A DNA stretch of 18,198 nt from a virus. Lineage: Duplodnaviria; Heunggongvirae; Uroviricota; Caudoviricetes. A program made the translations under genes and the position numbers. Below the pieces are notes generated by a model. It was given only the letters and a program-made list of their open reading frames with translations, ran no database searches and had not been told where the DNA came from. The DNA lies in IMG/VR virus record IMGVR_UViG_2534681697_000016, positions 1 through 18,198 of that record, one strand, 5' to 3'. Shown here one piece after another: positions 10,847 to 18,198 of this stretch. Within the stretch, counting starts at the first letter, position 1, and each line of letters opens with the position of its first letter.

Positions 10847-11420
10847 AGTCACAGGTGGCAAACAGTTCCGGCAGAAGCTGAAACAGGTTGCCGCGAACCT
10901 TTCATTGGGTAAAAAACTCAAAGTGGGTTTTCTTGAGGGAGCAACTTACCCTGACGGTACGTCAGTGGCTTATATTGCCGCAGTTCAGGAGTTTGGTGGA
11001 AGAGCGGTCATACCCGCCCGTGAGCAGACGCTCCACTTTCGCTATAACGAAAAAACGGGAGAAACCGGGCACCGCTTTGTCAAAGCCGGTAAAGGGAATT
11101 TTGTTCAGGATGTGGTTATTCCTGAGCACACGGTCACCATTCCCCCCCGTCCGTTCTTCCGTAAGATGATCGAACATAAAAGTCCCGAATGGGGCGAAAA
11201 AATGGCGACCTTATTACGGGCGAATGATTTTGATACTGCGACCGCTCTGGTGTGTATGGGAGAACATATCAAAGGGCAGTTGCAGATGTCTGTTCGCGAC
11301 TGGGAAAGTCCGCCCAACGCTGCATCCACTGCCCGGCAAAAGGGTTTTAACAACCCGCTTATTGAAACCGGACATATGATGGACAGCGTTGATTATTCTG
11401 TAGACGGGGGCAAAAAATGA
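10836..11420 (+). CDS. phage neck/virion morphogenesis protein (HK97 gp10-like)
   Basis: The ORF track gives 10566-11420, but the upstream part overlaps the previous gene in another frame. ATG 10836 follows a GGGAGGGG ribosome-binding site and overlaps the upstream stop. Contains IPPRPFF, resembling the conserved PxRPF motif of HK97 gp10-like proteins. Confidence 0.45.
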
Positions 11421-11782
11421 ACTTTCACGGTATTGTTTCCGGCGCAGTACGTCGGGTAAATCCCTTTACAGACGCGCTGGTTTATCGTTCCCGCGGGAGT
11501 ACACAGCAGGCAGATTATTCCCGCGTACCTGAGTATGAAGATCCGGTTTCCGTCAGGGTGCAAAAGCAGGCTGTCACCCAGGCTGATTTACGTCATCTTG
11601 ATAATCTTAACCAGCAGGGAGTTTTCGCCACATTGTATACCGATGGTAACTGGTGCGGGCTTAACCGTGCCCGGCAACAGGGAGGCGATAAATTTGTTAT
11701 TGGCGATGAAACGTGGCTGGTGATTGAGGTACCGGAAATCTGGCCTGACTGGACGAGGGTTATTGTATGCCTTCAGGTGTGA
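11417..11782 (+). CDS. hypothetical phage head-tail joining protein (121 aa)
   Basis: ORF track 11417-11782; ATG overlaps the upstream stop (ATGA). Confidence 0.45.
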   Translation: MNFHGIVSGAVRRVNPFTDALVYRSRGSTQQADYSRVPEYEDPVSVRVQKQAVTQADLRHLDNLNQQGVFATLYTDGNWCGLNRARQQGGDKFVIGDETWLVIEVPEIWPDWTRVIVCLQV

Positions 11783-12312
11783 CCCTCTCCGTTACGGAAA
11801 GCGCTCTTTATCAGGCCCTCGGTGATTATCTCCGGGGGCTTTTTTCTGATGCCGGGATTGAACGAACGCAGCAGAACCAGGTCCCGATGCCTCAGGGGAA
11901 TTTCATCACCATGACGGGCATTGATGTTACCGGATTATCCACTGCGGTAGTGGCATATTCTGCGCCAGCGCAGGCTGGTGAGGGCTCTCAGCATATCACC
12001 CGTACCACAAAATGGCGTTGCCAGCTTGATTTCTACGGCCCTCACGCGGCAGATAACGCGCAGGTGCTGGCAACGCTTTTCCGGTCTGAATTTTCCGTAC
12101 GGCTTTTCCGGCAGGGCGGTGGGCTGATTTCCCCGCTGTATTGCTCAGAGCCCTTTAACACCACATTCCCCAACGGTCAGCAACAGTATGAACCGCGCTG
12201 GACGCTTGATATTCAGATGCAGATTAACCCTGTGGTCACAACTTCCCTGATGTTTTTTGACAACGTGATCACCCGGACAACGGAGGCTGATAATGCCAAT
12301 TCCACTCAGTAA
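11767..12312 (+). CDS. hypothetical phage tail completion/terminator-like protein (181 aa)
   Basis: ORF track 11767-12312, in the operon just before the sheath gene. Confidence 0.45.
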
Positions 12313-13777
12313 AGATGTACAGATAAATCCCGGTGTGCTGGCTGTGGCGGGTAATGCCGTTGATCTTAACGGCCTGCTGTTGACCAGTAATCCGTTACTT
12401 CCGGTCGGCACTGTGGTTCCGTTTTCCTCTCCGGATGATGTGGCCGCGTATTTTGGTGCATTATCCGATGAGTACGCACGCGCTCAGCTTTATTTCCAGG
12501 GCTTCAAAAATGCCACCAGGACGCCGGGGCAATTGTTGTTTTCCCGTTTCAGTCCTGCCCCATCGGCGGCCTGGTTACGTAGCGGTTCGTTTAAGGGCGC
12601 GACTGTTGAACAGCTACAAAAACTTTCCGGCACGCTGATGCTGAGTATTAACGGGAAAAGCGTCAGCATTGAAGTGAATTTTAACGGTGTCGCCAGCTTC
12701 GCCGCTGCTGCAACGGCACTACAGACAGCGCTGACCGCAGCAGTGGCTACAGTGGTATTCGATACCACACAGAATGCTTTTGTCATTACTGTCGCCGGTG
12801 CGAAACCCGGGAGTACCACGATAACGTTCGGCAGTGGATCGGCAGCAGAACTCCTGAAGATGACCAGTAACACCGGTGCGGTGATATCCCGGGGCGCGCC
12901 TGTATCTGATGTCCCTGACACAATGGCAGCCATTAAGGCCGCTTCCCAGCAATGGGCGGGTTTTTCCACGGTATCTGAGGTCACTGACGAGCAACACCTG
13001 GCGTTTTCTGCATGGGCAAACGGGCAGGGCAAGCGTTACTTTTATGTGGCATGGACAACCAGCGGCAACGCCAGAGTAAAAGGCAGTACTAAACACATCG
13101 CTTACCAGATAATTGCTGTCAATAACTACAGCTCTGTTGTACCTGTTTTCGCGACTGATGGTAACCGGGCTGCAGCGGTACTGGGGTATGCAGCGTGCCT
13201 TGATTTTGTCCGACCAGAGGGGCGTGTATCATTCAAGTTCCGCGAGTATGAGGGGCTGGCCGCTGATGTTACCAGTGGCAGCGATTATGATGCGCTGATC
13301 GCCGCAGGTTACAATTTCTACGGAAAATATGCGGAAAACAGTGTGGTGGAAGATTACTGGGCGGATGGCACTATTACCGGTGATTTTAAATGGCTGGACA
13401 GTTTCTGCGGGCAAATCTGGCTGAATGCCAGTTTGCAGGGGGCGGTGATCGCGTTATTCAAGTCAAACCAGACGATCCCCTACAACAATGAAGGGCGGGC
13501 GCTGGTTGCAGCGTCAATGAGTGACGTTATCCAGCAGTACAAACGCTGGGGAGGGATCCGTGAAGGGGTGACACTGACGGAGGCGCAGAAGAAACAGATT
13601 AACAATGTTGTGGGGGCAGATGTTTCTTCAACGTTGTTTGCCACCGGCTATTACCTGTATATCGGCGATATGCTTCCCTCTTTGCGGGCAACCCGTAGCA
13701 GTCCGTCCTGTACGCTCTGGTACTGTGACGGCGGTAGTATCCAGAAACTTGTTATTGCATCCACGGAGGTCCAGTAA
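12293..13777 (+). CDS. phage contractile-tail sheath protein (DUF3383-like)
   Basis: 494-aa ORF with ATG 12293 and a GGAGG ribosome-binding site, directly followed by a ~150-aa tube-sized gene and a chaperone/tape-measure pair, the canonical myovirus order. Confidence 0.6.
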
Positions 13778-14224
13778 ATGTCGGGTAACAACAACACCAT
13801 CACTGCGGCGGATGCCATTATCACGCTGACAGTGAATAATCTGTATCCCTCCGGCGTACGACTTCAGGGATTTGCAACAGATAACGTTTATGGCACCGAT
13901 CCACTGGTACTGGCGGAAACTGCCCGCGGTATTGACGGTAAACTGTCCGCGGGATTTGTGTACAGCAACATTATCCAGACGTTTCATATCATGCCGGATT
14001 CCCCCAGCCGGGATATTTTTGATACCTGGTCAACCACATCCCGGGCCAGTCGGGCTGTATTCCGTTGTAACGCTGTCGTCCTGCTTCCGGCGATTGGCCG
14101 TAAATATACCTGCGTGAATGGCGTACTCAAACAATGGAAAGCGCTGCCTGATGCAGCTCGTACGTTGCAGCCAGGGCAGGCGGTTATTGAGTGGGAAACC
14201 ATTACTCCGGAGGTTTTTAACTGA
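13778..14224 (+). CDS. phage tail tube protein
   Basis: 148-aa ORF with ATG 13778 and a GGAGG ribosome-binding site, between the sheath and the tail assembly chaperone. Confidence 0.5.
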   Translation: MSGNNNTITAADAIITLTVNNLYPSGVRLQGFATDNVYGTDPLVLAETARGIDGKLSAGFVYSNIIQTFHIMPDSPSRDIFDTWSTTSRASRAVFRCNAVVLLPAIGRKYTCVNGVLKQWKALPDAARTLQPGQAVIEWETITPEVFN

Positions 14225-14628
14225 TGGCCCGTAAAGAGAAATTTATCACTATTGAAGGTCAGGGACGGGATAAGGGCAAGGTATTTCATCTTACCGAAAT
14301 GTCTGCCTTACAGGCGGAATGGTGGGCGATGCGTGCCATTATGGCAATGGGGCGTGGTGGCGTGGAGTTACCGGATGATGTTCGTAGTCTGGGGATGGCT
14401 GCGCTTGCCCTTGAAGGGCTGAAAGCATTATCGAAAATTCCGCCTGATGAGGCGCGTCCGTTGATGGATGAAATGATGGACTGTGTGCAGTTTGTTCCCG
14501 ATCCGAAAAAACGCAGCATCCGGAGACCGCTTGTTGAAGAGGATATTGAAGAAATCATTACCCGTCTTAATCTGCGTGCGGAGGTCTTTAAGCTGCATGT
14601 GGATTTTTTCGCTACCGTCGTCAGCTAG
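14224..14628 (+). CDS. tail assembly chaperone (lambda gpG analogue)
   Basis: 134-aa ORF immediately upstream of the tape measure gene, with a T TTT TTC slippery heptamer 18 nt before its stop. Confidence 0.6.
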   Translation: MARKEKFITIEGQGRDKGKVFHLTEMSALQAEWWAMRAIMAMGRGGVELPDDVRSLGMAALALEGLKALSKIPPDEARPLMDEMMDCVQFVPDPKKRSIRRPLVEEDIEEIITRLNLRAEVFKLHVDFFATVVS

Positions 14629-14852
14629 ATATCCCCCCGCGTTATCTCGACCCCGACAGACCGTTCGGGGTGGTGGATTACGTTAATGTTCCCCGTACCA
14701 TTGCGACCGTTATCTCCTCCGGTAAGGCTTCAAAAGCTGAACTGGATTCTGTCCTTGGTGTGCAGGACTTATGGGATCTGCTGGAAATAATTCATGTGGA
14801 TGCCCATAACGAACAGGTGATACAGGAGAACAGAAATGGCGCAGGTACTTGA
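14224..14852 (+). CDS. tail assembly chaperone frameshift-extended product (gpGT analogue) via programmed -1 frameshift at 14604-14610
   Basis: The -1 frame is open from 14592 to 14852 (track ORF 14670-14852 from GTG). The slippery sequence T TTT TTC at 14604-14610 lies in the overlap, and the extension ends 14 bp after the tape measure ATG. Confidence 0.5.
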
Positions 14853-15376
14853 TGAGCTTGTTCTGTCCCTCGGGATTGATGACAGGGACTTTACTGCCGG
14901 GGAACAGGCAGTACATGCTGCCCTTAACCGGCTCACGACGGTGATGGAAGGTGTCGCTGACACATTCAGTCAGGGACAGAAGAAAACCAGTGAATCACTG
15001 GAAAAAACCGGAAAAGATGCTGATAAAACGGCCCGTCGAATGGAAGATGCCGGGAAACGGGCGTCCCGTTTTTTTTCAGGGATCCGTAGCGAGATTCTGG
15101 CTCTTGCGGGTGTCAGTCTGACGCTGGGGGGGCTGAAGAACCTGGTAACAGGTTTTGCCCGTGATCTGAACCGTCTGTCCGTGGAATCTGATGCTTTTGG
15201 CATGAAGGCCAGAAATCTGGACGGATGGTTACGGGCTGCGCGGGCAAATAATGTTGATGAAGGGGAAATGTCTGGGGCATTTTCCCGGCTTGCAAATGCA
15301 AAAGCGGCCTTCAGAGCCGGAAGGTCCTTTGATCCTGTGTTACAGGATTTGTTTCAGGTTGCAGCCAGGGCGGGCA
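14836..15376 (+). pseudogene. tail tape measure protein, N-terminal ~180 codons only, truncated by the IS5-family element
   Basis: ATG 14836 directly after the chaperone pair. The ORF track frame (14836-15402) runs into the IS inverted repeat at 15377 and terminates there. 180 aa is far shorter than any tape measure protein. Confidence 0.55.
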
Positions 15377-16298
15377 TTAGGCTGTGTCCCTTAATCATCT
15401 GAGCTATAGTAACTGTCTGTTTACACAACATATTGAACTATGGCTCGCTACGACCTTCCCGATGAGGCATGGACCATCATCAAGCCCCTGTTACCTCCTG
15501 AACCCGCCACACCACGGGCCGGACGCCCATGGGCTGAGCACCGTAAAATCATCAATGGCATGTTCTGGGTGTTATGTTCCGGTGCACCATGGCGCGATTT
15601 ACCCGAACGATATGGGTCATGGAAAACTGTTTATAACCGCTTTAACCGATGGTCAAAGTCAGGCGTGATTAATATTATTTTCAACAGGTTGCTTTCGCTA
15701 CTTGATGCAAACGGCTTTATTGACTGGTCTGCCACCGCGCTGGATGGCAGTAATATCCGGGCGCTGAAATGTGCCGCCGGTGCTCAAAAAAACATCCCGA
15801 TATCGACGGAGATAATGGGCTGGGTCGCTCTCGCGGCGGTTTTGGCACCAAAATCCATCTGGCAACAGACGGAAGTGGCCTCCCGTTAAATATCGTGCTA
15901 AGCCCCGGACAAGCTCATGAAAGCCAGTTCGCGCAACGACTTCTGGACGGGATTGGCGTTCAGCGTCAGAACGGCAGCATGAAACGCCGTGGACATGCGG
16001 TACTGGCTGATAAAGCGTATTCAGGGCGCGCATTGCGCAACGAGCTGAAAAATAACGGTATAAAGGCAGTAATCCCCCGAAAGTCAAATGAGAAAATGGC
16101 ATCGGATGGACGTGCACAGCTTGATCGTGATGCGTACCGCAATCGTAATGTCGTTGAACGGTGCTTTGGGCGGCTGAAAGAATATCGCCGCATCGCCACG
16201 CGTTACGACAAAACGGCGAGAAATTACCTGGCGATGGTGAAACTGGGCTGCATCCGACTCTTTTATCAACGCTTACGTAATTAAGGGACACAGCCTAA
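15377..16298 (+). mobile_element. IS5-family insertion sequence (IS427/IS1031-group-like), ~920 bp
   Basis: Perfect 19-bp terminal inverted repeats: TTAGGCTGTGTCCCTTAAT at 15377-15395 and its reverse complement at 16280-16298. Encodes a two-frame transposase with an A7 slippery run. Boundaries are +/- 3 bp. Confidence 0.75.
15440..16284 (+). CDS. IS5-family DDE transposase, produced from two frames by a -1 frameshift at the A7 run 15786-15792
   Basis: Track ORFs 15440-15889 and 15769-16284 (-1 frame). The joined product reads ...LDGSNIRALKCAAGAQKK/HPDIDGDNGLGRSRGGFGTKIHLATDGSGLPLNIVLSPGQAHESQ...DKAYSG...NVVERCFGRLKEYRRIATRYDK, with the GRSRGG-TKIH and YDK hallmarks of IS5-family transposases. 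Confidence 0.8.
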
Positions 16299-16378: not shown

Positions 16379-16779
16379 TTATTCAATTATTTTTTCTTTG
16401 AATATATTCTCAGTCCAGCTGTGTTTATACCTGATGAAAATTTGACACTCACCAATATTATCAATGTCTCCAGAATTTGTATTTGGAATTTGTCCAACTG
16501 CAACTATAGTTGATTCAAAATATTCAACATTGACATTATCTGTAATTATTGAAATTATATAATCATCTGGAATAGAGCCATTAGGAGTTATATTGAAGAA
16601 ACTAACATCTGAAAATACCAAATAACCATCTTCTAAGTCTTCATTATCATAAAAATTCCATTCTGTTGTACCATAGGCTATCCTTGAGATTAAATTAACC
16701 TGAATTCTAATTTGTTTACTCCATAAATCAAATTCAATTTTTTTATTGCTCGATCACCAAGATATATTCTATCAAACAT
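16379..16779 (-). pseudogene. putative Rhs-associated immunity protein gene, split by a frameshift in an A7 run
   Basis: Minus-strand ATG at 16779-16777 lies 14 nt after the Rhs stop, behind a GGGGGG ribosome-binding site. That frame stops after 29 codons (MFDRIYLGDRAIKKLNLIYGVNKLEFRLI). The -1 frame is open from before the A7 run (plus-strand T7 at 16738-16744) to 16379 and contains the track ORF 16379-16621. AT-rich like the adjacent toxin tip. Confidence 0.4.
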
Positions 16780-16793
16780 ATTACCCCCCTATT

Positions 16794-18198
16794 CTAAAAA
16801 TACTCAGGCATTCCGCACATTATATCAGCCTCATCTTGATTGCTTCCCGTTGACATTTCAACATACATAGCACAATAACATTGTCCAAACGTTCCCTCTC
16901 TACATGATCTAAGTGTAAACATATGTAAAACAGAACTAAAAAAGCTTAGTGTACCGAGTGATCTAATACCGATATGTGCGGCACTACTATTCCATGGTAC
17001 AACGCGACCATTAACATCAAGGGATGGACCTTGGCCTTTCATACCGCTACCTGTTCCTGGTAAATGTGCATGTGGTGTTGAATTGTTTGCATGCCCTATT
17101 GGATTAAGCCTATAATCATTTGAATTATTCTGATAAAGAGTGTGAGTATCTGCACTTCCTGGATTACTGGGGGGATACGGGATTGTTCTGCCACCTACCG
17201 GTTCAACCATAATATTGCCTTTAGAATCACCTATAAACCTACCAACAGGTTGTTGAGTTATAGGATCAATAGTACAGGATTGACTTACAGGTTTTTGTCT
17301 GGGAGAAGGTAATGATAATAGATCTAATCCCAAAGGTTCTATATACTGAACCGGATTCAACGGATACTGATAAAAATTCCATCCCCCCTTCAGTCCAATC
17401 GGATCCTGAGTGATATATCGCCCCTGCAGCGGGTCATAATAGCGGTGGCGGTTGTAATACAGGCCGGACTCCTCATCATACTGCTGCCCCGGCAGGCGGA
17501 TAAGCTGCTGCAGCTGATGCGGGTTCTCTTCATTCAGCAGGTTGCCCCACTCATCGTATTCTGCGCACCATTCTGTTGCCCCTTCCGTGCTGATAAGCAC
17601 CAGCGGCAGGCCGCGATGGTCGCAGTGGTACAGGTGGATTTTTCGCGCCGGCGTGTACACCGGGTCCATCTGGTTTTGCATCTGCTCTACCGTCAGGCCG
17701 CACGATGCCAGCCAGCGGCGGCTTTCCTCACTCACCCGGTCAGCCAGGATTTCACTTTCCAGCCGGTCGAGCATCTGCACCAGCACCGGCGGGAACACCA
17801 CATCACCACCGTCTTCGCCGCCGGACTGCTGAAGGGCATCCGCCAGGCTGCGGCGCTGCATTTTCGCCTGCTCACCGGTGGCGGTTTCAACTCTGATGAG
17901 TGGCGTGAAGCTCCCCGGCTGATAAATCGTCTGGATGCGGGTTCTGTCGTTCTGTATCGTGGTCAGGCGGTCGCCGTCCCAGCCGTACCAGGTCACTTCC
18001 GGTTTCCGTGACAGCGACATCCAGCCCGTCAGGTCCCGTTCACGTCGCCATACCCGTTTTGCCACCCTGCGGCCCAGCGGGTCGTAAAGATAGCGGCTTT
18101 CGACCAGCGGCTCTGCATATTGTGTCCGCGTGTAGTGCACCAGCCGGTGCTGACTGTCGTAATGGTACCGGTGGGTGCGCTCATCATCCGTGCGGATA
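16794..18198 (-). CDS. Rhs-family protein, C-terminal part: 3' end of the YD-repeat core plus a ~176-aa C-terminal polymorphic toxin tip; the 5' end lies beyond the window
   Basis: The minus-strand frame is open to the window edge; the track ORF 16794-18140 begins at an internal GTG. It contains YD repeats ([36 protein letters not shown]) and the core-terminal hallmark [40 protein letters not shown]. An AT-rich variable tip follows, ending ...CGMPEYF-stop at 16794. Confidence 0.85.

Follow-up and report, generated by a model that had tools for sequence, protein, structure and literature searches.

The small gene that lies 3' of the Rhs ORF in the window, a term used here for the whole stretch of 18,198 nt that was analysed, is very probably an ordinary pseudogene, namely a DUF6258 immunity gene that a one-base deletion in its A8 run has broken, within a decaying Rhs module that ends in an undescribed toxin tip. 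In the explanation that we favor, a mutation-prone A8 tract became one A shorter, which inactivated a putative cognate immunity gene encoding 133 aa in its intact form. This loss would have been tolerated because the module was probably no longer an active weapon in the lineage, its toxin being likely disarmed by the replacement of the releasing Asp with Glu, by the deletion of a conserved His and by the change A70D in its most conserved motif. The rhs locus itself would have been cut and rearranged by an insertion sequence (IS) in an IS-rich, Shigella/EIEC-like genome, and at most trace amounts of the full-length protein would still arise by spontaneous –1 slippage or RNA polymerase stuttering. 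On this reading, the locus can be annotated as a true pseudogene, being neither an assembly error nor a recoding signal. The features of the window that are involved are the following:

15377 to 16298, plus strand: ISSfl7-like IS of the IS5 family, with 28-nt terminal inverted repeats and two overlapping transposase ORFs
16379 to 16621, minus strand: ORF of 80 aa with a TTG start, within the 3' segment of the putative immunity gene; it is what gene callers report, and was called on short Logan contigs only
16379 to 16738, minus strand: 3' segment of the putative immunity gene, in the –1 frame, 119 codons plus TAA
16690 to 16779, minus strand: 5' segment of the putative DUF6258 immunity gene, 29 codons plus TAA, with only the first 14 codons in the authentic frame
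16738 to 16744, minus strand: A7 homopolymer that has lost one base, intact alleles having A8, as seen in the alignment with three A8 orthologues
16784 to 16790, minus strand: Shine-Dalgarno-like AGGGGGG, 4 nt 5' of the immunity ATG, by direct reading
16794 to 17324, minus strand: variable toxin tip at the C-terminus, 176 aa followed by a stop codon, belonging to an undescribed family; GC 0.39-0.44
17325 to 17405, minus strand: double DPxGL autoprotease motif, DPIGL-x17-EPLGL, with the second Asp changed to Glu (codon 17339-17337, SNP at 17337)
17406 to 18198, minus strand: 3' part of the Rhs core (YD-repeat shell), with no stop up to the window edge; Pfam RHS PF03527, E=2e-14; GC about 0.62

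Reading of the minus strand confirmed the interruption reported in a preliminary description of this DNA: the ORF provided with a ribosome-binding site begins at the ATG at 16779-16777 and terminates after 29 codons at the TAA at 16692-16690. In this frame, the sequence around the run is ...GCA ATA AAA AAA TTG..., the run consisting of exactly seven A (16744-16738), and the –1 frame is open from there to the TAA at 16381-16379. This remainder had been put at about 117 codons and the repaired protein at about 130 aa; 119 codons were counted, and one extra A does restore a protein, of 133 aa. The TTG at 16621 is the sole canonical start codon in the –1 frame and gives rise to the ORF of 80 aa. 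Since the intact orthologues differ at the run only by their A8, the interruption is a real one-base difference and not a chance pattern of ORFs. The window copy also carries two private non-synonymous changes and no private synonymous one, both in the 3' segment: I123T (16413), at a position where nearly all homologues have I or L, and K126I (16404).

With one A inserted, the 133-aa protein matches the Pfam family DUF6258 (PF19772; E=7e-26, 91.3 bits against a cut-off of 25) over residues 4-89, that is, across the shift site at residue 14/15. The ORFs of 29 and 80 aa, searched singly against Pfam, had no match, so the gene as it stands encodes no DUF6258 member in one frame. The homologues are uninterrupted, 128-133 aa long, with the conserved N-terminus M-[FI]-[DE]-R-I-Y-L-G-D-R, and all the full-length ones begin at the same Met; in the window, the frame of this ORF breaks after codon 14. 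They include the intact E. coli orthologues, 402 nt long, of O121, O55:H7 and PS10-3, which are annotated as 'DUF6258 family protein', full-length homologues of 133 aa in E. albertii (92% identity), Citrobacter (84%) and Salmonella (about 80%), and more distant homologues whose identity falls as low as 37%. Conservation of the family peaks at the N-terminus (I5, Y6, L7, G8, D9, R10 and K13), followed by I31, S32, R33, W41, Y44, E47 and D48, and all these residues sit upstream of the internal TTG. The preliminary description had called for an alignment of homologues, conceding that a protein naturally starting at this TTG, with no conservation of the upstream frame, would speak against it; the alignment gave the opposite, coding potential spanning both frames and being best conserved at the N-terminus. 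An AlphaFold model, built on an intact homologue 97% identical to the repaired window protein, is all-beta (pLDDT 79.6), and three of its nine predicted strands (residues 5-7, 11-18 and 23-33) precede the internal TTG. The fold search of this model against the PDB returned no match (best E=0.25, TM 0.22), nor did the profile search of DUF6258 against PDB sequences, and no paper naming DUF6258 was found in the literature.

The gene had been described as immunity-like on account of its place after an Rhs toxin. That placement held, since it is a DUF6258-type gene directly following an Rhs toxin tip and the pairing recurs elsewhere; the role itself is read from gene order. A gap of 14 nt separates the small gene from a full-length Rhs gene ending in the same tip both at the rhsA locus (O121, O55:H7) and at the rhsB locus (PS10-3), and a homologous tip is directly followed by a DUF6258 gene in Rahnella sikkimica, across a gap of 14 nt, and in Diaphorobacter aerolatus, a betaproteobacterium. 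A small downstream gene co-varying with the tip, the mark of a cognate immunity gene, was therefore found in E. coli, Rahnella and Diaphorobacter. Further settings of DUF6258 genes are the arrays of Rhs orphans in Salmonella and E. albertii, and an islet that also contains Barstar- and ankyrin-like genes. The GC content drops from 0.62 in the Rhs core to about 0.4 in the tip (0.39-0.44) and to 0.28 in the small gene, a fall from core to tip to small gene that is usual for Rhs elements. Rhs C-terminal toxin/immunity modules are reportedly the subject of work by Poole in 2011 and by Koskiniemi in 2013. The gene order suggests that the DUF6258 gene is a putative cognate immunity gene of this tip, and DUF6258 could be assigned as the putative immunity partner of an undescribed Rhs/PT-HINT tip from an arrangement found across two proteobacterial classes.

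The Rhs gene runs off the window at 18198, so that its 3' third was analysed and its other two thirds fall beyond the edge. The toxin side of the module is open from the window edge to the TAG at 16796-16794 (minus strand), and its core shares 98.9% identity with the E. coli O121 gene at the rhsA locus. It has the build of an Rhs module, with an RHS/YD core (PF03527) ending in PxxxxDPxGL and a variable tip of lower GC content. The first residue of each DPxGL is a catalytic Asp, and only one of the two is present here, the second motif being EPLGL. Where the window has IEPLGL, the homologues have IDPLGL, the Asp being kept in all seven of the seven Rhs-linked homologues aligned, and the exact 80-mer with the Glu codon was absent from the complete E. 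coli genomes searched. It was demonstrated that D1338N abolishes cleavage in Rhs1 of P. laumondii (PMC8636562) and that D1324N and D1346N each end cleavage and killing in RhsA of P. protegens (PMC8765631). For the window, a loss of cleavage is what we infer, since Glu keeps the carboxylate and the substitutions described in the publications replace Asp with Asn or Ala.

The tip also departs from its family at two other sites. It lacks one 'HA' unit of TPHAHAHL near 17075, the TPHxHxH motif being present in every homologue; this corresponds to the deletion of a 6-nt repeat unit (CATGCA) that is common to O121, while O55:H7 and PS10-3 keep the unit, and the O121 strains with the deletion still carry an intact immunity gene. 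Additionally, a private A70D (codon 17117-17115) falls in the invariant N-S-N-x-x-R-L-N-P-x-G-H block, the most conserved motif of the tip; the other invariant motifs of the family are EPVGG, DTHT and T-P-H-x-H-x-H. Homologues of the tip were found on Rhs and PT-HINT proteins, searches against Pfam, NCBIfam and PDB sequences gave no match, and the AlphaFold model of the tip had a pLDDT of 55.7. With Glu at a catalytic Asp, one conserved His missing and A70D, the visible part of the toxin appears to be damaged. Among the four explanations put forward in the preliminary description, a dead toxin is the best supported, both by these three suspicious changes and by the broken or orphan Rhs genes at the other toxin-linked A7 loci inspected.

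The loci at which the gene is still linked to the toxin tip allow the same comparison in other strains. Fifty-seven complete genomes keep the gene linked to the full tip, most of them with a length and identity typical of A8, and two loci were fetched because their lengths suggested A7, those of OkiPb01700 and EC556. In OkiPb01700, the Rhs gene is annotated as frameshifted, its core having lost about 100 nt, and a motif of ten letters is one residue short; in EC556, the tip is found on an orphan fragment that has no N-terminus, behind an ISAs1 element. In O121 and O55:H7, on the other hand, the Rhs gene ending in this tip is full-length and goes with A8. Such a pattern, intact toxin with A8 versus disabled toxin with A7, fits a loss of immunity after the weapon had been disarmed. 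It had been argued that losing the immunity should be deleterious if the toxin were intact. The danger would be smaller than assumed, because, in the published double-lock view, the attacker is shielded by the Rhs cage as well as by the immunity protein (PMC8636562). The association of intact toxin with A8 and of broken or orphan toxin with A7 may serve as an illustration of toxin and immunity genes decaying together.

The distribution of the two run lengths was determined from exact-match counts with queries of 80-82 nt around the run in 5426 complete E. coli genomes, 837 of which carry the gene. The exact A7 80-mer was found in 415 of the 5426 genomes, A8 in 146 and A9 in none, and, since the remaining genomes with the gene (about 276 of 837) have extra SNPs and were left out of both classes, these counts mean at least 415 with A7 and at least 146 with A8. 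All the run-length changes seen were deletions. REL606, BL21(DE3), E. coli C and O157:H7 EDL933 are among the carriers of A7. In these four strains, the gene has been displaced to the rhsC array as an orphan, and no more than the last 57 nt of the tip are left.

The same deletion is found on several different E. coli allele backgrounds. REL606 and E. coli C (A7) are the same as ATCC 8739, which has A8 and is intact, at all other variable sites; OkiPb01700 has A7 on an O55-like background; and AR_0015 has A7 in a divergent allele, 91.6% identical, that also contains W122stop. Further lesions accompany A7 in EDL933 (G105stop and four non-synonymous changes) and in EC556 (three substitutions and an early stop, the gene being truncated), next to the two private changes, I123T and K126I, of the window copy. 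The broken gene thus appears to be recurrent and unmaintained, as judged from the further decay of the other A7 alleles. The relatives in other genera have a single-frame gene. The fragile A8 belongs to the E. coli allele only (ATA AAA AAA ATT), in contrast to Salmonella, which has no run at the site (ATC AAG AAA ATC), and to E. albertii, in which an A7 is in frame (ATG AAA AAA ATT). The A8 tract of the E. coli allele can be regarded as a recurrent break point, already broken in standard strains, for which annotation pipelines report truncated 'DUF6258 family proteins'. A separate observation concerns a metagenome allele (ENA contig, 1738 nt) reading IKKL-NLIYGANKLEFRW-ISRIAYG, in which an A7-type shift is followed about 17 codons later by a second shift that restores the frame; there is one such member, on one contig, and either a compensated frameshift or an artefact of assembly could account for it.

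The surroundings of the gene point to rearrangement by IS. The ISSfl7-like element ends 80 nt after the immunity stop, the homology to O121 ends at 16295, and one end of the IS truncates a prophage ORF (14836-15402). An identical IS-prophage junction is present in CP026875.1, and since the prophage continues beyond the IS in that sequence, the IS of the window is best read as the joint at which recombination connected a prophage to the rhs locus. Farther away in the window, a copy of IS600 (1941-3205) abuts the left end of a tailed-phage structural module of 12 kb (3206-15380) with portal, Mu-F-like head protein and E217-type tail genes, which is 99.7% identical to prophages of EIEC-type E. 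coli such as CFSAN029787. In addition, positions 333-912 (plus strand) hold two overlapping ORFs in different frames, both matching Pfam Oxidored_FMN (profile positions 191-268 and 292-340), and probably represent a second frameshifted gene of the window, truncated as well. Together with this second gene, the IS content gives the impression of a decaying genome of the Shigella/EIEC type. No hits were obtained when the window was scanned for Rfam families and tRNAs, and the promoter and terminator scan remained at background level.

Four other explanations were weighed against the pseudogene. The first one is a leaky or programmed recoding, in which a –1 slip on A_AAA_AAA, or the addition of an A by the RNA polymerase, would supply enough DUF6258 protein for immunity; we consider it improbable. 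The heptamer is in phase (0-frame ATA AAA AAA TTG), and a tandem –1 slip on it would produce ...AIKKIEFD..., the same as the A8 product. In fact, A_AA.A_AA.A shifts at more than 0.1% in the absence of stimulators and is among the two commonest heptamers of IS1 and IS3 elements (PMC4066793), and C-AAA-AAA in the over-expression vector pDEST17 led to 25-60% frameshifting (PMC1851650), so that both the unstimulated shifting of this heptamer and the vector case lend the idea some credit. It also agrees with the restriction of the observed alleles to A7 and A8, with no A9.

However, of the attributes of a programmed –1 site, only the in-phase X_XXY_YYZ heptamer was observed, and neither a stimulatory structure nor a conserved two-frame organization was found. 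The 78 nt downstream of the run have a minimum free energy of –7.7 kcal/mol (z=+0.63), 147 of 200 shuffled sequences fold as well, and there was no Rfam match. Since the flanks are identical in the A8 alleles, nothing seems to have evolved for shifting, and the other A7 alleles (EDL933, AR_0015) contain stops in the frame that would be needed. As for transcriptional slippage, selection against it is evident from about 9 A/T in many bacteria (PMC1088944), and the A7 run is shorter than that. GGTGATC, placed 7 nt before the run, was considered as a dnaX-like Shine-Dalgarno stimulator and discarded, its spacing being below the 10 nt of dnaX and its sequence being unchanged in the A8 alleles. Ribosomal or transcriptional slippage, as proposed in the preliminary description, thus survives as a low-level event, some full-length product being possible because the heptamer stands in the exact phase that regenerates the wild-type protein; as a selected mechanism it does not, considering the missing structure and the stops in other A7 alleles. 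It is doubtful, and we give it a small chance only, that such a low dose of the 133-aa protein, by slippage or stuttering, would neutralize a poorly expressed or poorly released toxin. If it did, this would help to explain why the same deletion has been repeatedly tolerated, toxin-linked copies included.

A second explanation would make the tract a contingency locus that toggles between A7 and A8 to turn the immunity off and on. One haplotype occurs with both lengths (A7 in REL606 and E. coli C, A8 in ATCC 8739), and this, like the presence of A7 on several backgrounds, is what such switching would leave behind, but we regard it as very improbable. Known contingency loci use tracts longer than the 7-8 nt seen here, and turning an immunity gene off offers no evident benefit. 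Moreover, the A7 alleles are not being maintained for switching back, because other A7 alleles have accumulated stops.

According to the third explanation, an N-terminally truncated product would be a working immunity protein, either the 80 aa starting at TTG 16621, which the preliminary description had offered as sufficient, or the products of 119 or 103 aa called by NCBI. The downstream frame is still open in the window, a point that also counts against the pseudogene, and RefSeq does list truncated 'DUF6258 family proteins' of 103, 119 or 73 aa in standard strains with A7; judged by position, that of 119 aa (E. coli C) would start at ATT and that of 103 aa (REL606) at ATC. Such a product would nevertheless do without the start Met shared by all the full-length homologues, and, when begun at the TTG, without the invariant IYLGDR..K and ISR/W/Y/ED blocks and the three predicted strands that lie upstream. 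The 80-aa ORF has no Pfam match, and direct reading revealed no Shine-Dalgarno-like sequence at the usual spacing before the ATT or the TTG. Because the conserved residues and three predicted strands precede the TTG, the 80-aa ORF is very unlikely to be a working protein, and we rejected the truncated-product explanation as hardly credible.

Finally, the suggestion that the true sequence is A8 in an intact gene and that A7 is a homopolymer error of sequencing or assembly, for all that homopolymers are the classic site of such errors and that the genomes of close relatives differ in the length of the run only, has next to no probability, since two Logan contigs, which together represent the assemblies of 1 + 6 = 7 independent read sets, show 100% identity to the window along 1.1 kb with the A7 and the private SNPs included, the same A7 recurs among B strains and O157:H7 across many assemblies made independently (the exact A7 80-mer being that of the 415 complete genomes), and the window copy bears private non-synonymous changes of the kind that marks a gene in decay. 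The deletion is genuine.

The pseudogene can be compared with three known systems. As at the –1 sites of dnaX and of IS1 and IS3 (A_AAA_AAG or A_AAA_AAA), a slippery heptamer is in phase in the window, and a shift on it would fuse two ORFs. Unlike these sites, the window has no stimulatory stem-loop or pseudoknot, its two frames derive from a deletion in an intact gene, and the arrangement is not conserved. The frameshifts rescued by poly(A) slippage (Baranov 2005, PMC1088944) likewise involve a one-base deletion in an A run, one A added to the mRNA restoring the ORF; however, the tract of the window has only 7 A, below the approximately 9 from which slippage becomes evident in many bacteria.

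The third likeness is to the Rhs toxin/immunity modules that E. coli and Salmonella have, and to their displaced orphan tips (Jackson 2009, PMC2935791), with which the window shares a GC-rich YD-repeat core ending in DPxGL motifs, an AT-rich variable tip and a small AT-rich gene 14 nt downstream; as with the displaced tips, the same immunity gene is also met as an orphan within the rhsC array, both in E. coli and in E. albertii. It differs from the known Rhs modules in a tip that has no Pfam model and in an immunity family, DUF6258, with no published characterization, as well as in the frameshift of its immunity gene and in the Asp of its autoprotease, which has become Glu.
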